Positions 11,718 to 24,744 are shown, numbered from the stretch's first letter. The stretch is DNA of 64,000 bases from Candidatus Pacearchaeota archaeon (GCA_050303855.1 JBNLCO010000004.1:7581-71580), one strand, 5' to 3'. Translations and numbers: made by a program. Notes: generated from the letters alone by a model not told the origin.

Positions 11718-11744
11718 CCGCCAAGATATAGATTTCTATTGTAT

Positions 11745-11816
11745 GCCTCGGTAGTTTAGTGGCTAGAACACGTGCCTGTCGCGCACGAAATCCGGGTTCG
11801 ATTCCCGGTCGGGGCG
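11745..11816 (+). tRNA. tRNA-Asp (anticodon GUC)
   Basis: Hand-folded cloverleaf. Acceptor GCCUCGG/UCGGGGC (two G-U pairs), D stem GUUU/GAAC, anticodon stem CGUGC/GCACG with loop CUGUCGC, T arm CCGGG-UUCGAUU-CCCGG, discriminator G. Confidence 0.9.
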
Positions 11817-11817
11817 T
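11806..11817 (+). repeat. att core copy 1 (tRNA-Asp 3' end)
   Basis: CGGTCGGGGCGT, identical to 22936..22947. Confidence 0.7.
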
Positions 11818-11894
11818 CTCTAGTTTTTGTCTATTTGAAGAAATGTACTCAAAATATACAGACTTCTTTTTAAGAAAGTCTGTTTTAACTACAC

Positions 11895-13049
11895 ATGAAA
11901 ATAGACCCTTACAAACACAAAGAGAGATACTTTAGTTGGAAAGAAAAAGCCATGAAGGATGGAATTCCTGGTTCCTCTGAGACTAATTCTAAGATAATTC
12001 TACAATATCTGAGTGATATGGAGCATGGGATTAATGTTTCTTTGAAAAGTGTTAAAGGCGCTAGAGGTTATCCTAGATTGAATACTCTTAGGGAGAAGAT
12101 GTTGTTTTTCACAAGAAGATTTAAGGAACTTTACGATTTGGACAATATTACGGAAGTTAGTGAGGAACAATTGCTTCTTTTATTTTCAAAGATGAGGAAA
12201 GGGGAGATTTTTAAGAAAGGAGGTCAAAGATATCTTTCTGTGAACTATTTTGTTAAATCATTTAAGTCTTTTTGGCACTGGTGGCAAACTTCTAATAAGA
12301 AGAAAGGGGTTGATGTTCAAGATATAACAATAGACTTAGATTCTAGGGGTGAAAAACCAAAATGGGTTTATTTAACTGAAGAACAAGTTAGAAAACTTTG
12401 TAATAAGGCAAAATATGAATATAGGGTGTTAATCATGTTCTTGTTTGATACTGGAATAAGGGCTCCAACCGAACTGATTAATCTTAAAGTTTCTGATCTG
12501 TATAATGATTGTAAGGAATTGCAGATTAGGGATGAAATTTCTAAAACTTTTGGGAGAAAGATAAAATTAATGCTTTCATCTGATTTGTTGAGACAATATA
12601 TTGCGGATAGGGAATTGAAGGAAAGCGATCACCTCTTTTTAATAAAGCCCGCCACGGTTAATTTGTATTTGAAGAGATTGACTGTTAGAGTTCTTGGTGA
12701 TGGTATGAGTTTGGCAGGTCAGAGATACTCTGAGATAACTATGTATGATTTTAGGCATATTTCCTGTTGTTATTGGTTGCCTAGATATAAATCTGAAAGT
12801 GCTTTGAAGTATCGGTTTGGATGGAAGAAGTCTGATAAAGTGCACTACTATTCGGAACTGCTTGGTATGAAAGACACTATTCAGGAAGAAGATTTATTCA
12901 TAGATAATACTAAAACTGAACTTGAAAGGGAACAAATTAGATTGAGTAAGGAGAATGATATCTTAAAGGAGAAAATGGATGTTATGGGTAGTCAGATGAA
13001 GGAGATCTTTGGTTTAGTTAAGGAAATGGTTGAAAAGACTAAGGTTTGA
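11895..13049 (+). CDS. tyrosine recombinase / phage-type integrase
   Basis: DTGIRAPTEL (Arg box) and YDFRHISCCYW (box II R-H). It lies adjacent to a tRNA, and its N-terminal 120 aa are paralogous to the 24367..24744 fragment. Confidence 0.85.
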   Translation: MKIDPYKHKERYFSWKEKAMKDGIPGSSETNSKIILQYLSDMEHGINVSLKSVKGARGYPRLNTLREKMLFFTRRFKELYDLDNITEVSEEQLLLLFSKMRKGEIFKKGGQRYLSVNYFVKSFKSFWHWWQTSNKKKGVDVQDITIDLDSRGEKPKWVYLTEEQVRKLCNKAKYEYRVLIMFLFDTGIRAPTELINLKVSDLYNDCKELQIRDEISKTFGRKIKLMLSSDLLRQYIADRELKESDHLFLIKPATVNLYLKRLTVRVLGDGMSLAGQRYSEITMYDFRHISCCYWLPRYKSESALKYRFGWKKSDKVHYYSELLGMKDTIQEEDLFIDNTKTELEREQIRLSKENDILKEKMDVMGSQMKEIFGLVKEMVEKTKV

Positions 13050-15135
13050 GCTTGGAAGCTCGTTTTTTAAATTCTTCTCTTAATTCGCTTTCATTTAATA
13101 TTTCTTTTACAATTTCACCTTCAGTTAAATTCTTTTCTAATTCTTCTAAAAGTGATAAATCTTTATTTAAAATTACTTTTTGTGCTTCAGTAAAAAAATT
13201 ATTCTTATATAATTCATCATTAGGGACTCTAAAATATAATTCAGTCAATCTTTTTAAAATATTGAAGTCTAAATAATCTAAAATTACTCCTAAAGGGATT
13301 TTCAAGCTCTTTTTTAATTCTTTAAAATTCTCGTCATCTATTTTTCCAACAATCCAAAACCGCCGAAATTTCCCTATTTCTTTTATTACTTTGCTCATTT
13401 TAGATGAGTTAAGATATCTTTGAAGCTTTGATATTTCTACTTTATTCTTACAAAATGAAGAATCAATCCAATATTTTGAATCCCAAACAGAAATAGATCC
13501 TTCATGATCTATAAAATTTATCCCGTCTGGAATATATTTTCCCCCAAGTTTCTGAGAACTTGGGAAAAATAATCTTAATATTTCCCCTGTATCTCCTTCT
13601 GCAAGATTTCCAAAATTTTCGGGAGTGGCTTCTATAAGCATCTCAATATTTTCTATGGCTTCTCTCCTTGTTTTTTCACTTCTTTCTTTAATTCTTCTAA
13701 AATAAGGGTTTATTACATCCTCTCTAACGCTAAAAGAACTTTCATTTTCAATAAGATCTCCTAGCAAGATTTGTACAAATTCACTATTTTCCAATTTATT
13801 TGTGTCAGACAAACATACAAATATAGGGGTTGTATCTAATTTACTGCATCTATTTAGTATACTTTTTATTGATCTTTTATCATTCTTTTTTATTATAGAA
13901 AGATAAAAAGAAATGAATTTATTTTTTAAAAGATACAAAGATGTTGCCTTTGGATTTAATTTATATAAACCTGTTATTTTTTTACTATTATAACCTTCTT
14001 TTTTAAAAAATTCTAAGATTTTATTTTCTAAGTTTCTGTCGTTTATTTCAAGAGAAAATACATCTTTCTTTTTTGCTATTTGCTCTTTTTCCAATAGACT
14101 TAGAGCTTTTTGGCATAGAAGTATATCGAGCCAAAATAATTGTCCATTGTTTGCAAATAATCTACTTACTTGTGAAGAAAGATCTAGTTTAGAATCTTCT
14201 CCAATAACAATTAAATTATTTTTTATATTATTATTTGTTAGAAATTCTAAATCCCCTTGAGATAGATTTTTATCTGTAAATTTGTATTTTATCCCAATAT
14301 CCTTTGATCCTTTTTTTATTCTTTTTAATGTTCTTTTTATTTTAATCTGAATTAATGAAGATAATCTAAGTTTAAAACTTAATATATACCTTGCATCTTC
14401 AAATAAAAAGGACTTCATCTTATCCACAGCCTCTTTTATTGATTGATTTGTATTAATGGAATTTAATTCTAGTCTAGGTGTTTGTGGGAGATTTGTTTCT
14501 TTGAATCTTATACTTTCTAAATTTTCAAAAGAGACGATCTTATCAAATTCATTTTTCATTTCCTTAATAACAACATTATTTGGAACAAGGATATTAGAAA
14601 TATCTTTAATTTTATTAGATATTTTATTAACTAAACTTACTCCAAACAATCCAGATTGGAAAAAAAGATTAAGTTTGTTCCCTCTTTTTTCAATAATTAT
14701 TGAACGTGTATAATCTATTTTATTATTTGTAGTGAATTTTTGTACTAGTTCTTTTTTTGTAGAATTTTGAACTTTAATTAACGATATAAAATTCTTATTA
14801 TTCCCAAAAATAGAGAATTGTTTGAATCTATGTGTCCCAAGAAATTCTTGCCGGAGTAATTTCAATGTTTTTCTTAATTCTTTAATTCCAAAAGAAAAAT
14901 CTGCCTCAGAAACAAATTGGTTATGGATAAAGCTCCCATAACTTTTTTTCTTAAAAATAAATAATTGTTTTATTAGGTCTTCTACGCCTTTCTTTGTATT
15001 TTGTTGTCTAATTTTTTCTAATAAGGTTTTTTCATCTTCAGTTAAATCTCGGTTATCGTAATAATCCAAGAATTTCTCAAGATTGTCATTAAAAGAACCT
15101 TCTTCTAATAATTCTACATCTTCCCAAAAACCCAT
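13039..15135 (-). CDS. large protein with C-terminal FokI-type (PD-D/ExK) cleavage domain and uncharacterised N-terminal ~500 aa
   Basis: NIEMLIEA..LGGKYIPDGINFIDHEGSISVWDSKYW..EISKLQRYL..RRFWIVGK aligns by eye to FokI YIELIEIA..LGGSRKPDGAIYTV..GVIVDTKAY..ADEMQRYV..FKFLFVSG. Confidence 0.65.
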   Translation of the reverse strand: MGFWEDVELLEEGSFNDNLEKFLDYYDNRDLTEDEKTLLEKIRQQNTKKGVEDLIKQLFIFKKKSYGSFIHNQFVSEADFSFGIKELRKTLKLLRQEFLGTHRFKQFSIFGNNKNFISLIKVQNSTKKELVQKFTTNNKIDYTRSIIIEKRGNKLNLFFQSGLFGVSLVNKISNKIKDISNILVPNNVVIKEMKNEFDKIVSFENLESIRFKETNLPQTPRLELNSINTNQSIKEAVDKMKSFLFEDARYILSFKLRLSSLIQIKIKRTLKRIKKGSKDIGIKYKFTDKNLSQGDLEFLTNNNIKNNLIVIGEDSKLDLSSQVSRLFANNGQLFWLDILLCQKALSLLEKEQIAKKKDVFSLEINDRNLENKILEFFKKEGYNSKKITGLYKLNPKATSLYLLKNKFISFYLSIIKKNDKRSIKSILNRCSKLDTTPIFVCLSDTNKLENSEFVQILLGDLIENESSFSVREDVINPYFRRIKERSEKTRREAIENIEMLIEATPENFGNLAEGDTGEILRLFFPSSQKLGGKYIPDGINFIDHEGSISVWDSKYWIDSSFCKNKVEISKLQRYLNSSKMSKVIKEIGKFRRFWIVGKIDDENFKELKKSLKIPLGVILDYLDFNILKRLTELYFRVPNDELYKNNFFTEAQKVILNKDLSLLEELEKNLTEGEIVKEILNESELREEFKKRASKLKP

Positions 15136-15168: not shown

Positions 15169-15771
15169 CTATTTCCACCTAGCTTTCTTCAAAGGCGTTC
15201 CGTTTAGCTTTTTACCTAAAGTATCTTTTAAATTATGGATGTCTTGTTCTTCAGTCCAAACAAAAAACCAATTCTTGTTTTTTTCACACCATTTTTCATA
15301 AGCCTTGATTTTCTTTTCCATTTTTCCATTATAATCATCATTATCTAATCCAAAATGTTCAATAATTATTATGTTGTCCCCATCTTCAATTACAAAATCA
15401 GGACGATATTCTTTATTATCTAATGTAAGCAAATCTTCATATCTTGGATGTAATCCGTTTGCTTCAAAGAAATATAATAAGAGTAATTCGGATTTTGACT
15501 TAACTTTTTGTCCATTAAAATAAAATCTCCCTTCAAATTTATCTCTAAAATCTGTTTCCTTTTTGTTTTTTACATAATCTATTTGTTTTATTTTTTTCTT
15601 TTCTTCTTGTTTTTCTTTCCAATGTTCTTTACAAAGATTATGTCCTTCTGGGACTTCTATTCCGCAAACTTCACAAGTAGGTTTTTGCTTTTCTTTTTCA
15701 TTACAATCAAAACAAAGTTCAAACCAAGGTTTCTTTGGATTTCCACATTTTGGGCATTCTGTTTTTGACAT
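15169..15771 (-). CDS. zinc-ribbon plus PD-(D/E)XK nuclease-fold protein
   Basis: The N-terminus has CPKC..CFDC and CEVC..CKEH pairs. The C-terminus has SKSELLLLYFFEANG..YRPDFVIEDGDNIIIIEHFG, a restriction-endonuclease-like core. Confidence 0.55.
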   Translation of the reverse strand: MSKTECPKCGNPKKPWFELCFDCNEKEKQKPTCEVCGIEVPEGHNLCKEHWKEKQEEKKKIKQIDYVKNKKETDFRDKFEGRFYFNGQKVKSKSELLLLYFFEANGLHPRYEDLLTLDNKEYRPDFVIEDGDNIIIIEHFGLDNDDYNGKMEKKIKAYEKWCEKNKNWFFVWTEEQDIHNLKDTLGKKLNGTPLKKARWK

Positions 15772-15813: not shown

Positions 15814-16044
15814 ATGTGTAGTTATTCACATATGCATAGGGATATACTTATGATTACAGAGGAAATTCTTAAAACTTTATCTAAGAATAAGGAATTATCA
15901 ACAAGACAAGTATCTTTGAAAGTTAAAACTCATAGGGCAGTTGCTTTAAGATCCCTAGAGTTTCTTAAAAGAATAAATTTGGTTAAAGAAAGAGAAGGTA
16001 CAGAGACGAATCGGGTTGAGAGGCTGTTTAGTTTGAAGAATTAA
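15814..16044 (+). CDS. small winged-helix DNA-binding protein (putative regulator)
   Basis: ILKTLSKNKELSTRQVSLKVKTHRAVALRSLEFLKRINLVKE follows an HTH-plus-wing pattern. The start is uncertain, as several in-frame Met codons are present. Confidence 0.45.
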   Translation: MCSYSHMHRDILMITEEILKTLSKNKELSTRQVSLKVKTHRAVALRSLEFLKRINLVKEREGTETNRVERLFSLKN

Positions 16045-16385
16045 ATTCCCAAATAATTCTTTAAAATTAAGGCGAGGCTGAAAGTTATTATAAATGTAGC
16101 AAATATTTTAATAAGAAACTTTTTGAATTTTTCTTTATCATAGTACATTAATCTTTCTGTTCTTTCTATATTTTGAGAGATATCAATTACCCATTTATAA
16201 GAAGCATAAATCAACAATATATTAAAAATAAATAATATTAATTTTCCTATAGATTCAAAGAGAATCAAAAAACCTGACTCTTTAATTGCTGGTAAAAGAT
16301 AATCTGAAATTATTGATAATTCTGTAGGTAAAGCAAATCCCAAACCAATAGCTTCCTTTATGATTATTTTTTGGGTTTTATTCAT
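16041..16385 (-). CDS. small 3-TM membrane protein translationally coupled to res
   Basis: Its ATG overlaps the res stop codon (ATGA, 16382..16385). Three hydrophobic helices. No family recognised. Confidence 0.55.
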   Translation of the reverse strand: MNKTQKIIIKEAIGLGFALPTELSIISDYLLPAIKESGFLILFESIGKLILFIFNILLIYASYKWVIDISQNIERTERLMYYDKEKFKKFLIKIFATFIITFSLALILKNYLGI

Positions 16386-18652
16386 AGTTCTTTGAGTTTA
16401 TTCAATATTTCGTCAATATTTTTATTATGAACTAAAAAGAAATGGAGGTTTTTATCTAAGGAACTCCAGATATTTCCAATTTCTTCTTTATATTGTGTGT
16501 CTTCATTGCTTATCCTATCTTCTCCTTTCCATTCTAATGCAATAATGTTCCCTTTTTTGGTTAATGCTATAAAATCTGGATAGAATTTATTCTTTTTCCA
16601 CCCTTGGATAAAGAAAGGGTCTTTCTTTTCTCTATTTCTTACCCAAAATTTAATATTATTTAATCCATCCAAATCTAGTCTTTGAACAAAATTCATTTCC
16701 TCTTTGTTTAATTTATCAACATTTTCATAATAGTTTTTGTTCCATTTTCTATCTGGTTCTTGACTTAAAATGATTGTTTCTGGAAATTTATCCAATTTCA
16801 TTACAGATATCTTCTTTTCTTTTAACATCTTTTCGAATTTGCCTTTGGAATAATCTTCTAAAATCTTTAATATTAGATCGCTTAGTTTTTCCAATAGGAT
16901 GAATCTGTTTACTGAGAGTTCTGAGATTGTTTTTTCTTTTAATTGTTCTTCAATTATTTTTCTAATGAACTTTACTTTATCTGGCTTATCTAGTAGTGTA
17001 AATCTCAATTTCTTATCTAACCATTGTATTAGTTCTTCTTTTGAGAAGTTTTTATCTTTGTAGGTTATATGGAGTGTTTGTTGAGCACTTCTTACCCATT
17101 TGTCTTTATCTTGGATATCTATTATTGCCTTGCCATCTCCATCATAAAACATCTCAAATTCAAATTTGTAATTTTGTTTTGAGAGTTCAAAGTCTTCTCC
17201 AATTAATTCTTCAAAGGATAATTTTTCTTTATCAAGGGACATTATTGGGATAAATAAATCTTCTTTGAATGATCTACTTATTTCTAGCTCATATTTTTGA
17301 TTTTTGTCTGTAGAATTAATTAAATCTAGTTTACTATATCCATTATTTTCTAGTCCTGAGATTATTTGATTTGCTGATTCATTAAAATTTTTAGCTGACG
17401 CAAAGATATAGCTTCTATTTAAAACTTCATTTTCCTTTTTTTGAGCATTAGGCATCCTTAAGACCCTTCCAATTATTTGTTCAACTGCAATTTTTGAACC
17501 GATGTTTGCCACTGAAATTAAAACATATGCAAAGGAACAGTCCCAACCTTCTGCTAGGGCATTTATTGTTATAATATATCTAATCTTACATTTTTGACTA
17601 AATAAGTTTATTCCTTCTAATTCATTCTTATTTGAGGTCTTTATTGCTATTTCCTCTTCAGGTATTTTTCTTTCTTTAATTAAAAAATCTTTGATTTTGT
17701 CTACAGTTACGCAATCTTTGTCTTTTTTATCCGATTCCGCTTGTAGAAGGGCTATGGGTCTTATATATTCATTTTTATTTTTCTTTGCTTGTTTTTCTAA
17801 TTCAATTCTTTCATTAACTCCTTTGATTATTGAATTTTGCCATTGTGCTGTACTTTCTAAGACTATTGGGAGTTTTACCATTTGTTCTTCTTTTAATTCT
17901 GAGGAATGTATCTCAACTAAAATATTGCTTTCTGTTCTAGGGGTTGCTGTATATTCTATAATAAAACTAGGATTTAGTTCCTTTAGAAATTCAATTGATA
18001 ATCTTGTTTTTGTTTTATGGCCCTCATCTATAATGATTAATGGGTTTGATATTCTTATTACGTTTGCTAGTGAATTAATTATTGTATTTTCTTCATCTTT
18101 TTCTAAGAATTCTTTTTCTTCTAAGTTTTCAAAATGACTTAGTAATGCCCCATTTTCTTGATAAACTTTATATTTATTTTGAAGTGCTCTTTCTTTTCTA
18201 AATGCTTCTAAACTAGAAATTATTATACATAAGTTGTCTTGCACATCTTCTTTTCTTATTCTTAACGCTTCCTCATTTGAGAAAATTCTTATATTATTAT
18301 CAAAAGCTTCATCCAATACTTTTCTATGCCAATCGTTTTTATCTTTAAACTTTCTTAGGGTTTGAGATTTTATGGATTCTGATGGAACAAACCACATTAT
18401 GATTCCCTTCTCCATTTTATTTTTTAAAACAGAGGACATTATTTCAACAACGGAATGGCATCCTACAAGAGTTTTTCCTCCTCCTGTAGGTATTTTCATG
18501 CAAATGAAAGGTGTTTCGTTAAAGAAATCCGACTTGTAAGGTTTATCTGTAATGCCCATAAATGCATATTTAGTTCCAACCCTTTCTAATTCTTTAAGAT
18601 AATTTCTCAATATTTCAATTGACTTTTGTTGATATTTTTTTAGTTCTACCAT
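16382..18652 (-). CDS. res: Type III restriction enzyme Res subunit (SF2 helicase plus C-terminal PD-ExK nuclease)
   Basis: PTGGGKT (motif I), IIIDEGHK (II), YTATP (III), QIIGRVLR (VI). The C-terminal YPDFIALTKKGNIIALEWKG is the nuclease core. Confidence 0.85.
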   Translation of the reverse strand: MVELKKYQQKSIEILRNYLKELERVGTKYAFMGITDKPYKSDFFNETPFICMKIPTGGGKTLVGCHSVVEIMSSVLKNKMEKGIIMWFVPSESIKSQTLRKFKDKNDWHRKVLDEAFDNNIRIFSNEEALRIRKEDVQDNLCIIISSLEAFRKERALQNKYKVYQENGALLSHFENLEEKEFLEKDEENTIINSLANVIRISNPLIIIDEGHKTKTRLSIEFLKELNPSFIIEYTATPRTESNILVEIHSSELKEEQMVKLPIVLESTAQWQNSIIKGVNERIELEKQAKKNKNEYIRPIALLQAESDKKDKDCVTVDKIKDFLIKERKIPEEEIAIKTSNKNELEGINLFSQKCKIRYIITINALAEGWDCSFAYVLISVANIGSKIAVEQIIGRVLRMPNAQKKENEVLNRSYIFASAKNFNESANQIISGLENNGYSKLDLINSTDKNQKYELEISRSFKEDLFIPIMSLDKEKLSFEELIGEDFELSKQNYKFEFEMFYDGDGKAIIDIQDKDKWVRSAQQTLHITYKDKNFSKEELIQWLDKKLRFTLLDKPDKVKFIRKIIEEQLKEKTISELSVNRFILLEKLSDLILKILEDYSKGKFEKMLKEKKISVMKLDKFPETIILSQEPDRKWNKNYYENVDKLNKEEMNFVQRLDLDGLNNIKFWVRNREKKDPFFIQGWKKNKFYPDFIALTKKGNIIALEWKGEDRISNEDTQYKEEIGNIWSSLDKNLHFFLVHNKNIDEILNKLKEL

Positions 18653-18653
18653 T

Positions 18654-19418
18654 TTAATTAATTGAATCCTCTGCTGATTTAATCATTTCTCTTATAATCT
18701 CCTTTATTTCATTGGCATCTTCATTTTTATAATTTTCAGAATGCACATATCTTGCAGAATCTCTCAAACTTTTTAGTTTAGATAAAATAGTGCTAAATTC
18801 TGGTTTAATGTTTCCTAAATTTGCCCAACTAGTCAATTTTTTCTCTATTTTTCCATGAATGCGGAACGATTTGTCATTTAAAATATCCTTATCTGGCAAT
18901 ATTAACAAAATACTCTTCGCAGATAATTCCGCAGTTGCAAAGGCATTTTCATAGAATGCCCTTAATCTATTCTTTTCTAAACTATCAATAGCAGTTTCAT
19001 AAAATTCTTTTGATGCTTCAATATGCTCTTTTATTTTCTCTTTATTATATCTAGCATCAAAGGAGATAATCCAATTATTTTTAAAAAGCAAGAGAGTTAT
19101 ATGACCACAATTAACATCTTCGTCGGTTAATTCAACTCCCCCAATCTCACCTATATCAGATTCATAGACTAATTCTCCTTTTTGTATGTCTCTAGTGGCT
19201 TTTCCATGTATAATCGCTTTGACTTCTTCATTTAACCTAATATCGTTTTTTCCTTTATCTAAGTTAAAAACAATTTGTATTCTTGTTATCGGGATTCCTT
19301 CTTTTATTGTCCTTCTTTTTATTCTTCTTTCTATCTCAGGGTTAACGAAGATGTCCATTACTTGTTGAAAAACTCTTTGTTTTGTTTCATCATCAAAATT
19401 TAATTTTTCTTCTACCAT
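18654..19418 (-). CDS. HEPN-domain protein embedded between mod and res
   Basis: The C-terminal ~120 aa follow the classic HEPN helical pattern (EASKEFYETAIDSLEKNRLRAFYENAFATAELSAKSILL..HGK..LKSLRDSARYVH). RDSARYVH fits Rx6H. The N-terminal ~130 aa are unassigned. Confidence 0.55.
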   Translation of the reverse strand: MVEEKLNFDDETKQRVFQQVMDIFVNPEIERRIKRRTIKEGIPITRIQIVFNLDKGKNDIRLNEEVKAIIHGKATRDIQKGELVYESDIGEIGGVELTDEDVNCGHITLLLFKNNWIISFDARYNKEKIKEHIEASKEFYETAIDSLEKNRLRAFYENAFATAELSAKSILLILPDKDILNDKSFRIHGKIEKKLTSWANLGNIKPEFSTILSKLKSLRDSARYVHSENYKNEDANEIKEIIREMIKSAEDSIN

Positions 19419-19419
19419 C

Positions 19420-20952
19420 TTAGTAAACTTTCACCTCATAAGGGATTTGTTTAAATTGTATGTTGAATTTTTCTAAAGTGTCCTCATCAACCATACAAAA
19501 GTCGGCATAAATGACTTTTTTATTCCTTGTTTTTTTAATTTTAGATAAGAATGACTTATTTAGAACATTTTTGTATTTTTCTTTATAAATTAAATAATAT
19601 TCTGTTTCTCCAGTTTCCCCTATGAAATTTTTATCAATTTGTTTTTTATCTATGTTTGTTTGAGTTTCTGTAAAGTAAATATAAGTTGCAAATTGGTTAA
19701 AGTCACAAGTTTCTTCTATTTGCCCGTTTTCATCAAATAGGGGTTTATCTAATTCGCAATATTCAAATCCATCTTTATAACCATATTTTTCTATTGCTCT
19801 TTTAATTCTTTCAGCTGTTATTTTTTTTGCAATATCATCTTCCATTTCAATTAAAATAAATTTTCTGTTTCCCCCATCTTCTTTATTTAAATCTAAAACT
19901 GCGTGTCCTGTTGTCCCTGAACCTGCGAAAGAGTCTAAGATTATATCTTCCCCAGAAGAGCTTAAATGAATAATTCTTTTCAAAAATGAAACTGGTTTTG
20001 GTGTGTCGAATTCCTTACTCCCCTCAAAAAGTTTCATTAACTCTTTTGTTCCCTCAGTTGCGGTTCCAACATCATCCCAGATTGTAAAAGGGTTTGTGCC
20101 TTTTTCTAATGCCTCAGACTTAAATCTTTTGTATTGAGGTTTTGAATTACCTGTCTTGCCAAACACAATACGATTGTCATTTAATGCCTCAAGATATTTG
20201 TCTTTTGTAAATCTCCAATGTCTACCTTTTGGAGGGACATAAATTTTCCCTGTGTTTTGATTTTTTATTTCGTATTCTAAATTTGGTCTTATTGCGGGAG
20301 CATCCATTGGATCAGCCACCCAATCCCCTCTAGGATCATTGTCGGGGTTTGAAAATTTACTATCATCTATCCCAAGAGAATTTAACTTCAATCCATTTCT
20401 TTTCTTAGCAAAACAAAGAGTATAATTATGGGATAATGAAACATCTATATCATTCTGGCTCGACTTTCTATGTTTCCAAATAAAATCTGCGATAAAATTT
20501 TCCTCTCCAAAAATCTCATCCATCAAAAGTTTCAGATGTGATTGTTCATGGTCATCAATACTTACAAAAATGACTCCATCCTCACTTAATAAATCTCGAA
20601 GAAGTTTCAATCTTGGGTACATCATACAAAGCCATTTATCATGCCTACATAAATCCTGAGTTTCTCCTCCAACAACTTTTCCAAGCCATTTCTTTATTTT
20701 TGGAGAATTAACTTTGTCATTATAAACCCAATTTTCATTTCCGGTGTTATAAGGGGGATCTATATAGATGCATTTTACTTTTCCAATATAATAAGGCATA
20801 AGTGCTTTAAGCCCTTCTAAATTATCTCCTTTTATAATTAGATTTTGAGAATCCCCTACAGAATGAACTTTAATCTTTTTTAATAGTCTAAATGGTACTT
20901 CTTTGTCATGATTAACAACCGCTTCTTTTCCAATCCAGTTTAAGGTGGGCAT
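19420..20952 (-). CDS. mod: Type III R-M Mod DNA methyltransferase (N6A/N4C, beta class)
   Basis: IYIDPPYNTG (motif IV), HDKWLCMMYPRLKLLRDLLSEDGVIFVSIDD and DSFAGSGTTGHA (motif I). Confidence 0.9.
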   Translation of the reverse strand: MPTLNWIGKEAVVNHDKEVPFRLLKKIKVHSVGDSQNLIIKGDNLEGLKALMPYYIGKVKCIYIDPPYNTGNENWVYNDKVNSPKIKKWLGKVVGGETQDLCRHDKWLCMMYPRLKLLRDLLSEDGVIFVSIDDHEQSHLKLLMDEIFGEENFIADFIWKHRKSSQNDIDVSLSHNYTLCFAKKRNGLKLNSLGIDDSKFSNPDNDPRGDWVADPMDAPAIRPNLEYEIKNQNTGKIYVPPKGRHWRFTKDKYLEALNDNRIVFGKTGNSKPQYKRFKSEALEKGTNPFTIWDDVGTATEGTKELMKLFEGSKEFDTPKPVSFLKRIIHLSSSGEDIILDSFAGSGTTGHAVLDLNKEDGGNRKFILIEMEDDIAKKITAERIKRAIEKYGYKDGFEYCELDKPLFDENGQIEETCDFNQFATYIYFTETQTNIDKKQIDKNFIGETGETEYYLIYKEKYKNVLNKSFLSKIKKTRNKKVIYADFCMVDEDTLEKFNIQFKQIPYEVKVY

Positions 20953-20986: not shown

Positions 20987-21925
20987 CTACTTAATCCAAT
21001 CTCTTAAATTTGAAGGAGGCTTATTTCTCTTCTCCATTTCTTTTTCAATAATTGTTATCACTTCTTGATCCAAAGTAAATATTATTTCCTGTTTACATAT
21101 AAAACACTCGGAATTTGATGTTTTTACCTTTAATTTATAAAAATATCCAAATGAGCTAATTAATCGGCTTTTTCTTATTGTAACGATGTATTTTGCTATA
21201 TCTAAATCTGTTTGAAAGTCATCTTTATTGGAAGAAATGTATTTCAACATATAATTTAGGGTAAATCTTACCGTTCCTTGCTTTGAAACATGTATATTTA
21301 CTCTTCTTTTTGAAGATTGTTTGAAAAGTCTTACAATTTTGGAATCTTTTTGCGTTCTAACCTTATTATCTATAGATCTCCCGTAAATTATTGCATGTAA
21401 ATGAATATTCCAATTTCCTTCTGTGCCTTTTGTTTCTATTACATATAAGCCTCCTTTTATTCTCTGTTTGATATAGTCATGTCTTAAGAACTTTGAAAAG
21501 GATTGTTTAAGGTGTTTCATTCCTTCTTTTAAGTCTTCATAATTTTTTGGGGATATTGTAAGAAAATATATGAATTCTTTCCTATTTTGATTTATTCCTT
21601 TGAGTAATGGTAGATACTTTCTAGATATCTTTCTTTTTCTTATTTTTGAGCATTTAGGACACGTTCTAAGGTTACAATGATGTTCTAGTGGGAAAATCCT
21701 ATTTCCGCATCCACAAGAAGCCATTGCTCTAAATCCTGATTTTACTCCACACTTCAATAAAGAATTTAGTGATTTCTCTGGATATCCTAATTCCAATAAA
21801 TGTGAAGTTATTGCACTATTACCAAGTAAAAGGTTGGCTTCGCCAACCGGGGGAAAATCTTGAACGCGAGACTCCTGACTAAAGTCTACGGAGTCTCGCT
21901 CTAAAGATATAGAATTTTTTAACAT
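20987..21925 (-). CDS. rep: rolling-circle replication initiator (HUH, Rep_1/pC194-like) with N-terminal zinc finger
   Basis: FIYFLTISP (motif 1), WNIHLHAIIY (HUH), LNYMLKYISS (catalytic Tyr motif) and KCG..CGCG..HHCNLRTCPKC. The track start at 21946 is TTG, and the first ATG is at 21925. Confidence 0.7.
   Translation of the reverse strand: MLKNSISLERDSVDFSQESRVQDFPPVGEANLLLGNSAITSHLLELGYPEKSLNSLLKCGVKSGFRAMASCGCGNRIFPLEHHCNLRTCPKCSKIRKRKISRKYLPLLKGINQNRKEFIYFLTISPKNYEDLKEGMKHLKQSFSKFLRHDYIKQRIKGGLYVIETKGTEGNWNIHLHAIIYGRSIDNKVRTQKDSKIVRLFKQSSKRRVNIHVSKQGTVRFTLNYMLKYISSNKDDFQTDLDIAKYIVTIRKSRLISSFGYFYKLKVKTSNSECFICKQEIIFTLDQEVITIIEKEMEKRNKPPSNLRDWIK
21866..21899. promoter_or_regulatory. perfect 10-bp inverted repeat (candidate RCR origin hairpin) inside the rep 5' end
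   Basis: GCGAGACTCC-N14-GGAGTCTCGC. The loop TGACTAAAGTCTAC contains an inner GACT/AGTC palindrome. A second GC hairpin, GGTTGGC-TTC-GCCAACC, lies at 21832..21848. Confidence 0.4.
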
Positions 21926-21979
21926 AGTCGGAAAACAAGATTCCAACTTATAACCGACCTGTATAAACTTTGTACAAAA

Positions 21980-22180
21980 TTAGTTTTTTTGTAAGATTTT
22001 GTCCATCTTTTTTTCTATTCTCATCAAAATATCTTTCTCTTTTTCTTTGCCTAACCATTCATCAAAGATTTTTCTAATTAATTCCGCGAGAGAAAGTCCT
22101 TCTTCTTTTGCCCTCTCTTTTAATTTTTTCTCGAGAGCAATTTTCATACTTATACGATAAGTATAATTATTCCCGGGCAT
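21980..22180 (-). CDS. ribbon-helix-helix (CopG/Arc-like) protein
   Basis: YRISMKIALEKKLKERAKEEGLSLAELIRKIFDEWL has the beta-alpha-alpha RHH pattern. It lies immediately upstream of rep. Confidence 0.7.
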   Translation of the reverse strand: MPGNNYTYRISMKIALEKKLKERAKEEGLSLAELIRKIFDEWLGKEKEKDILMRIEKKMDKILQKN

Positions 22181-24366: not shown

Positions 24367-24744
24367 CTATTTGAGGTTGATCATAACAAAATAGTTTGTA
24401 GAAAGATATCTTTCTCCATTTTGCTTAACTATTTCCCCTTTTTGCATTTTTGAAAATAGTAAGACCAATTGGTCTTCTGTTATTTTGGTTATATTGTCCA
24501 AACCATATATTTCCTTAAATTTTCTAGAGTAAAAAATCATCTTTTCCCTTAATGTGTTAAGCCTAATATAACTTATTCCACCTTTTACGTTTTTTAGAGA
24601 TACATTTAGCCCGTGTTCCATATCTGAGAGGTATTGAATTGTTAAATCCGAATTTTCCTTACTCATTTCTGGGATTCCCGTTTCTCTAACCTTTTGCATC
24701 CATGCTTTGAATCTCTCTTCATGTTTGTAGGGATCAATTTTCAT
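24367..24744 (-). pseudogene. truncated tyrosine-integrase N-terminal fragment
   Basis: MKIDPYKHEERF..IQYLSDMEHGLNVSLKNVKG..LNTLREKMIFYSRKFKEIYGLDNIT.. is collinear with residues 1-~120 of the 11895..13049 integrase. It ends before any catalytic motif. Confidence 0.75.

Follow-up and report, generated by a model that had tools for sequence, protein, structure and literature searches.

We analysed a 64,000-nt stretch of DNA from Candidatus Pacearchaeota archaeon (GCA_050303855.1 JBNLCO010000004.1:7581-71580), hereafter the window; all coordinates count from its first letter. We found that the window holds an intact Type III restriction-modification (R-M) operon with two extra tightly packed genes. 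One of them, situated between the methyltransferase gene mod and the restriction gene res, encodes a 254-aa protein that we call X; the other follows res and encodes a small membrane protein of 114 aa. The explanation that we prefer, and to which we give about an even chance of being right, is that two accessory genes, independent of each other, became embedded in this operon of an integrated plasmid-like element, with X being a self-contained module of second-layer defence.

Operon layout and junctions

All four genes are on the minus strand: mod (19420-20952; Type III DNA methyltransferase, 510 aa), the gene of X (18654-19418), res (16382-18652; Type III restriction subunit, 756 aa) and the membrane protein gene (16041-16385). 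They were delineated by a listing of open reading frames (ORFs), to which PADLOC and Pfam matches were added for mod and res, and hydropathy and homologs for the 114-aa gene. The spacings read from the sequence were 1, 1 and -4 nt (mod/X, X/res and res/114-aa gene, respectively). At the first junction, TAA-G-ATG, a single base separates the mod stop (19422-19420) from the X start codon at 19418. The second one, TAA-A-ATG, has the same anatomy, with the X stop at 18656-18654 and the res ATG at 18652, while the TGA of res and the ATG of the last gene share the four letters ATGA at 16385-16382. The ORF listing and the reading of the junctions confirmed the picture of four closely packed ORFs given by an earlier, sequence-only reading of this DNA. 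The pattern is not a matter of chance, since the order mod-X-res is found again, equally tight, in 12 non-redundant loci, and conserved homologs exist for both extra proteins.

The R-M identity of the operon was clear from the database matches. Mod matched the PADLOC model MTase_III over its full length (residues 1-509, E-value 1.1e-176) as well as Pfam N6_N4_Mtase (PF01555, 4.2e-41). Res matched PADLOC REase_III (1.2e-82) along with Pfam ResIII (2.5e-13) and Helicase_C, and is thus a superfamily 2 (SF2) helicase; a PD...ExK-like nuclease motif, YPDF...ALEWK, was read by eye near its C-terminus. The window has, therefore, what defines a Type III system: an N6/N4 amino-methyltransferase, Mod, encoded upstream of Res, and a Res combining an SF2 helicase/ATPase with an endonuclease motif. 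PADLOC and Pfam agree here with the earlier assignment of the locus as a Type III mod/res operon with two additional genes.

The junctions themselves have a conserved anatomy. The Mod C-terminus, ...YEVKVY*, is conserved, and its codons hold a Shine-Dalgarno-like GAGGTGA just upstream of the next start. Locus L078, which has no X embedded between the two genes, shows the res ATG overlapping the stop of mod. Where X is embedded, its own ATG takes this place, preceded by the same GAGGTGA, and another conserved junction, TCAATTAANTAAAATGG, connects X to res. In the window the genes of X (19410-19418) and res (18644-18652), both on the minus strand, open with the identical nine nucleotides ATGGTAGAA, coding for MVE. 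The two genes share ATGG(T/A)A in the other mod-X-res loci, where ATGGAA pairs occur, and the second codon (V or E) agrees between X and res wherever both starts were readable, except in L024. Such sharing of first codons, seen in loci that are not independent of each other, hints that the X cassette entered just after the res start; the shared ATGGTAGAA may be an insertion scar or a target duplication of the cassette at this start.

Domains and conserved residues of X

The AlphaFold2 model of X, built from 44 homologs, had a predicted local distance difference test score (pLDDT) of 90.3 and a predicted template modelling score of 0.80. The model has a long helix (residues 10-34), six strands (46-123) and a helical domain (126-253). 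A Foldseek search of the PDB gave as the best match to the helical half the structure 2hsb (AF_0298), with a TM-score of 0.79 on the target; among the further matches were 4nqf, 3o10 (the HEPN domain of sacsin), 2q00, 1o3u and 1wol, and the top ones were all HEPN. On this model, the C-terminal half of X (residues ~129-254; 18654-19034, minus strand) is a real HEPN fold of the AF0298-like 'HEPN-T' type, and the earlier description of the 254-aa protein as an undescribed N-terminal half joined to a C-terminal HEPN domain is borne out. At the sequence level, X scored 21.8 bits against the Pfam HEPN family PF05168, a borderline value given the cut-off of 22; most of its homologs carry precomputed PF05168 matches and the JGI label UPF0332. 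Sequence searches with X and with its profile against the PDB returned nothing meaningful.

The conserved residues of the HEPN domain differ from those that had been proposed. The earlier reading took RDSARYVH as a catalytic Rx6H motif, and X of the window indeed has R219 and H226 at the canonical Rx4-6H spacing. The histidine is not kept in the family: position 226 is H, S, C, N, Y or A among close homologs and E, R, S, K, N or Q among 102 diverse representatives, so that V225-H226 is not conserved and the proposed motif had to be given up. Conservation, which we measured over 27-49% identity, fell instead on E164, H188, R219, R223 and Y224. In the 102 diverse representatives R219 was kept in 93%, A222 in 88%, and R223 and Y224 in 96% each; these residues belong to a basic motif, R219-D-S-A-R223-Y224, with codons at 18747-18764 (minus strand). 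H188 (codon 18855-18857, minus strand) was present in 103 of 103 sequences; it begins the helix 187-200, which follows an insert at 172-186 in the model. Glutamate was found at position 164 (codon 18927-18929, minus strand) in 102 of 103 sequences, within an E-x3-K motif, E164-L-S-A-K168, located in HEPN helix 2.

This pattern has a precedent in the HEPN survey of Anantharaman et al. 2013 (PMC3710099). An Ex3[KR] motif is described there for HEPN domains (PMC3710099). The AF0298-type HEPN-T clade retains the basic residue of the motif but not the histidine; its predicted alternative active site involves a second, strongly conserved histidine from the insert between helices 2 and 3 (PMC3710099). 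X has the same combination: R219 and R223 are retained, the motif histidine is lost, and the 'alternative' histidine H188 lies N-terminal to the motif. Since the residue pattern of X is that of the AF0298 type, catalysis is plausible, resting on the published prediction. X resembles the AF0298-like HEPN-T proteins (PF05168; UPF0332; 2hsb) in its best structural match and in its motif pattern. The known members, however, are stand-alone proteins of ~120-130 aa or are fused or adjacent to a minimal nucleotidyltransferase (MNT), whereas X has a fixed 125-aa alpha/beta N-terminal domain with invariant polar residues of its own and no adjoining MNT in the window.

The N-terminal domain of X (residues 1-128; 19035-19418, minus strand) consists, in the AlphaFold2 model, of the helix 10-34 and the six beta-strands. 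Its near-invariant polar residues E28, R32, Q48, R61, N63, E65 and H106 suggest, as far as residue conservation can tell, a binding or catalytic pocket. The domain had no match in scans of Pfam, NCBIfam, PADLOC or PHROGs, and a Foldseek search with the full X model found no structural match to it in the PDB or in BFVD, the latter giving no credible match at all. A profile of the domain retrieved 851 clusters at 50% identity (510 of them at E<=1e-10), nearly all 240-290 aa long with the domain at the N-terminus. With this many clusters of a fixed architecture, the domain is a constant partner of this HEPN rather than a promiscuous sensor.

Neighbourhoods of X and competing explanations

We fetched 94 X loci, 77 of which were non-redundant, and counted an R-M association when R-M genes were located within three genes of X; the counts are raw. 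R-M genes were near X in 43 of the 77 loci, and a same-strand neighbour was within 20 nt of X in 52. The hosts were of several kinds, given here with their typical arrangements. Type III operons, with the order mod-X-res, accounted for 12 non-redundant loci, and this order with the same tight junctions was retained down to 52% X identity. Ten loci had a Type IIG enzyme (Eco57I/MmeI-like) or an N6-methyltransferase, with X overlapping the enzyme stop by 4 nt; ten were Type II, with an N6_N4 methyltransferase, X and a convergent HNH endonuclease; and another ten were Type I, arranged, e.g., as hsdS-X-hsdR (L007, L046 and L049) or as EcoEI-type hsdR...X...hsdS. One more locus had another restriction enzyme. 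X came after the methyltransferase-bearing gene, directly or past one small ORF, in the loci of Types II, IIG and III other than L078/L079, in which it diverges from res-mod, and L014, in which its neighbours are encoded on the opposite strand.

When the X sequences were clustered, a group at >=60% identity brought together hosts of all four types (I, II, IIG and III); the host type was shared with the nearest typed neighbour in 32 of 43 cases. Distant members (~30-35% identity) were located beside AbiEi/AbiEii, in an island rich in toxin-antitoxin genes, or alone. Several loci with no R-M gene had neighbours of defence type, namely DUF262-like (by eye), SIR2, Mrr and a PLD-SNF2 restriction enzyme. 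No relatives of X or of Res were found in a scan of the IMG/VR viral contigs. Given that X is embedded equally in Type I, IIG and II operons, that host types mix among close X sequences and that there are AbiE-linked and stand-alone members, X looks like an autonomous embedded cassette rather than a subunit of the Type III enzyme.

We also looked for a partner of X. A small antitoxin-like ORF conserved upstream of X was considered and rejected, as the small ORFs upstream of X proved mutually unrelated and no small partner ORF was conserved across the loci. Therefore, X is not a hitchhiker of the two-gene toxin-antitoxin kind with a separate partner, a possibility that the sequence-only reading had named as fatal to its proposal. 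No NTP_transf_2 (MNT) gene adjoined X in the window, and MNT was seen only in L030, L060 and L068. The comparison with the HEPN-MNT type II/VII toxin-antitoxin systems is thus one of partial likeness: the HEPN toxin fold is common to both, and MNT directly follows X in L030 and L060, but X is a single-gene module, which neither in the window nor in most loci is accompanied by MNT or another conserved partner.

Two recurrent neighbours deserve separate mention. In many of the related loci X adjoins, with overlaps of -4 to -11 nt, uncharacterised proteins of 260-457 aa that have no Pfam match and carry a canonical HEPN-like RNxxxH (L073:4483-5259, L026:7187-8011 and L027:8729-10102; also L035, L076, L085 and L086), e.g., LRNKVLHADY and LRNPIAHEDW. 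The window has no such neighbour; their presence in many loci indicates that X may pair with canonical HEPN proteins. In L105:3732-6593 and L108:1059-2647 the distant X members P0160 and P0144 are each followed, with stop and start overlapping, by a 269-aa protein, which in L105 is weakly AbiEi_4-like and has AbiEii next to it; this suggests a different recurrent partnership of X outside DPANN.

The embedding of HEPN genes in R-M operons is a known theme. At least 16 HEPN clades have been linked to R-M operons, with a PrrC-like second-line model proposed for them (Anantharaman et al. 2013, PMC3710099), and several cases of PF05168-type HEPN genes clustering with R-M operons are listed as well (PMC3710099, Table 1). 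Embedded defence genes were later generalised and partly validated in Hachiman, BREX, DISARM and Type I R-M (Payne et al. 2024, bioRxiv 10.1101/2024.01.29.577857); the validated ones include several HEPN RNases, e.g., HEC-08. The HEC/PDC candidates found by 'guilt-by-embedding' are, like X, lodged on the same strand between genes of the host defence system; the hosts in that survey were the four systems just named, while those of X include also Types III, II and IIG.

PrrC of the EcoprrI Type Ic hsd locus is a further parallel, as a HEPN gene embedded, like X, between modification/specificity and restriction genes. We take prrC to lie between hsdS and hsdR in the prr locus. What the 2013 paper confirms is its embedding among the hsdMSR genes (PMC3710099). 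PrrC is a bacterial protein with an ABC-ATPase at its N-terminus and the canonical Rx4-6H, and is almost exclusive to Type I loci (PMC3710099; bioRxiv 10.1101/2024.01.29.577857). X, on the other hand, has no ATPase match in Pfam, NCBIfam or PADLOC and no canonical Rx4-6H, is mainly archaeal (DPANN) and is associated with four R-M types.

A guard of the PrrC style, in which the Type III Mod/Res would physically bind X and keep it silent as a latent RNase, to be set free when a virus inhibits restriction, was what the sequence-only reading had in mind. It agrees with the position of X between mod and res with 1-nt spacers, which points to co-expression, with the hsdS-X-hsdR order of the three Type I loci (the place that we take prrC to have), with the persistence of mod-X-res over the identity range given above, and with the explicit proposal of this role for R-M-linked HEPN genes (PMC3710099). 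The recurrence of mod-X-res upholds part of that reading, but the specificity for Type III does not stand, in view of the equal embedding in Type I, IIG and II operons and of distant members with no R-M system nearby. The subunits served by X sequences at >=60% identity are non-homologous beyond the methyltransferase fold; such varied hosts argue against a subunit-specific contact holding X latent, and X has neither the regulatory ABC-ATPase domain nor the canonical motif of PrrC. We consider this explanation unlikely, though it heads the alternatives.

Next to it, and also improbable in our view, comes a selfish origin: X would be a toxin-like or addiction-type mobile cassette for which R-M junctions are safe, co-transferred sites (a 'genomic sink'), and would contribute nothing to defence. 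X has hopped between R-M types and resides on a mobile element; its insertion is exactly at start-codon junctions, with the same first codons as the gene that follows (both ATGGTAGAA in the window, ATGGAA pairs in other loci); and the genomic-sink idea has been discussed in the literature (bioRxiv 10.1101/2024.01.29.577857). Against this, X is not accompanied by a transposase, an integrase or a partner antitoxin, strong purifying selection acts on the whole protein including the polar pocket of the N-domain, the arrangement lasts over deep divergence, and the IMG/VR viral contigs gave no relative of X.

No better chance than the selfish origin is given to a more ambitious version of our own explanation, by which X would stand for a new and widespread kind of immune or toxin module made of a single protein, with the N-domain acting as a sensor or a second enzyme and switching on a non-canonical His188/Arg223 HEPN RNase, and the R-M operons of DPANN would routinely be multi-layered. 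The trigger would then be some general sign that R-M has failed, e.g., unmethylated DNA ends, the depletion of a cofactor or the presence of an anti-restriction protein, and the operons would in addition bring small membrane proteins to the restriction subunit.

The weakest contender is a non-catalytic accessory, in which the HEPN domain would bind nucleotide, RNA or protein and X would modulate R-M expression or activity, e.g., the timing of restriction relative to methylation: it accords with the missing canonical histidine, with a non-catalytic sacsin HEPN among the structural neighbours, with the place of X after the methyltransferase-bearing gene in Type II/IIG/III loci (bar L078/L079 and L014) and with the possible non-catalytic action of MNT-linked HEPN domains (PMC3710099), but the near-invariance of H188, R223, Y224 and E164 over the range of identity studied is more in keeping with an active site than with a binding surface, these residues match the predicted AF0298 alternative site (PMC3710099), and X occurs also away from R-M systems.

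We return to the preferred explanation, X as a self-contained second-layer module. Starting from the observed gene order, folds, residue conservation and recurrent embedding across R-M types, we infer for X an RNase activity, its regulation by the N-domain and a role in defence. In DPANN, the X family would habitually insert at gene junctions of R-M operons whatever their type, in most cases immediately behind the methyltransferase-bearing gene, with the inserted X taking the start position of the downstream gene and being co-expressed with the operon. The HEPN domain, probably as a dimer, would act as a metal-independent RNase by means of H188, R219/R223 and E164. The N-domain would hold it off until a signal of infection or of R-M failure, and the ensuing RNA cleavage would lead to dormancy or abortive infection. 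The 114-aa protein would be a separate add-on trailing the restriction subunit; candidate roles are a membrane anchor of this subunit and a small exclusion or effector protein.

Several observations weigh against this explanation. A metal-independent RNase activity of the X HEPN domain is plausible from its residues, while catalysis of the AF0298 class is itself a prediction, and with the canonical Rx4-6H histidine absent from the family the domain could be non-catalytic. The N-domain modelled alone from 13 sequences reached a pLDDT of 56, compared to 90.3 for full X, and, given this low-confidence model and the lack of a structural neighbour, the gating role of the domain is a guess. Neither X nor the membrane protein matched a PADLOC-DB v2 model at E<=0.1, which places X outside the catalogued defence candidates (PDC and HEC included). 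Finally, 34 of the 77 loci had no recognisable R-M gene nearby, many of them being short contigs or having unannotated neighbours, and the association of X with R-M may be over- or under-estimated.

The trailing membrane protein and the mobile element

A hydropathy scan of the 114-aa protein gave two strong transmembrane segments, 41-59 and 90-108; the stretch ~12-34 is weakly hydrophobic by eye. The earlier claim of three transmembrane segments thus holds as to a membrane protein, while the count is two to three rather than a firm three. The protein had no match in Pfam, NCBIfam, PADLOC or PHROGs, and a search of 5.8 billion clusters returned four homologs only, with 54-65% identity. The five members of the family have 40 invariant columns, including the N-terminus MNKTQKIIIxE, which marks the ORF as a genuine gene. 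For each of the five, the gene immediately before it encodes a restriction subunit: this is the Type III Res in the window, in L103 and, once more with an overlap, in L101, and the Type I HsdR in L095-L100 (with a 5-nt gap) and in L102. Homologs of both extra genes thus co-occur with Type III systems elsewhere, X in the 12 loci and the membrane protein after Res in L101 and L103.

The closest mod-X-res locus, L001, has no membrane gene, and X and the membrane protein occur independently; the four genes are therefore not demonstrated as a unit. As for the synteny that the sequence-only reading had put forward, its mod-X-res part recurs, and the full layout with the membrane gene was seen in the window only. 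As a concept the layout is not undescribed, as both HEPN genes in R-M operons and their PrrC-like interpretation were published in 2013. With this principle and the PrrC analogy already established, the finding extends a known theme and opens no new one.

Other membrane proteins were observed in sister operons: between mod and X in L022:346-1386, L023:7462-8013 and L024:1693-2160, after res in L032:11010-11699 and L078:1741-2169, and between hsdM and hsdS in L095:1446-1937. Being mutually unrelated small or multi-pass proteins, they indicate that membrane proteins recur in R-M operons of DPANN beyond the 114-aa family. A relationship of the 114-aa protein to the ORFs of L022-L024 was rejected after tblastn against L001-L094 gave no match, no direct pairwise comparison having been made.

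The operon belongs to a plasmid-like element that has integrated into the genome of a DPANN (Nanoarchaeota-type) archaeon. This follows from a tRNA-Asp gene (11744-11818, plus strand; ARAGORN, Rfam), a tyrosine integrase gene directly after it (11895-13049, plus strand; Pfam Phage_integrase 5e-10, NCBIfam XerA 4e-11), a rolling-circle replication protein of the Rep_1 type encoded upstream of mod (20987-21946, minus strand; Pfam Rep_1 6e-12, REP_ORF2-G2P) and the nearest relatives, which come from metagenome-assembled genomes of Nanoarchaeota, Woesearchaeota and Pacearchaeota. The G+C content of the region is 26-30%. The tRNA-Asp gene with the integrase marks one side of the element; no att direct repeats of the tRNA-Asp region of >=13 nt were found, and an Rfam scan of the window detected two tRNAs only. 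The Rep_1 protein, separated from mod by a 34-nt gap, has an IS91-like zinc-binding region (Zn_Tnp_IS91 1e-4; NCBIfam IS91 transposase 1e-6); with such a protein directly upstream, the R-M operon may be co-transcribed or co-mobilised with a replicon of rolling-circle type. A gene for a ribbon-helix-helix protein (21980-22180, minus strand; Pfam RHH_1 0.0022) is also upstream of mod on the same strand.

Downstream of the operon there is a convergent winged helix-turn-helix gene (15814-16044, plus strand). Beyond it are genes for a 200-aa zinc-ribbon protein (15169-15771, minus strand), the C-terminal half of which matches PADLOC PDC-S68 (2e-13) and HEAT_CxxC_PD-DExK, and for a 698-aa protein with no family match (13039-15135, minus strand); the element may hold further defence cargo in these two genes. 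On the other side, a 125-aa ORF (24367-24744, minus strand) is a diverged copy of the integrase N-terminus with ~74% DNA identity and inverted orientation, and may be what is left of another, related element or else mark the far boundary.

The genomes of DPANN archaea are tiny and, R-M aside, encode few recognised defences. The X family, with its 851 clusters at 50% identity and its presence in all four R-M types within DPANN, is a testable candidate for layered immunity. X is also a natural test of whether the AF0298-type 'alternative histidine' HEPN domains, predicted since 2013, are real RNases. The strict place of the 114-aa protein after Res or HsdR is a separate lead, on the membrane association of restriction enzymes. 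The leads are, then, a very large two-domain family with a non-canonical HEPN site and a tiny membrane family that always trails restriction subunits.

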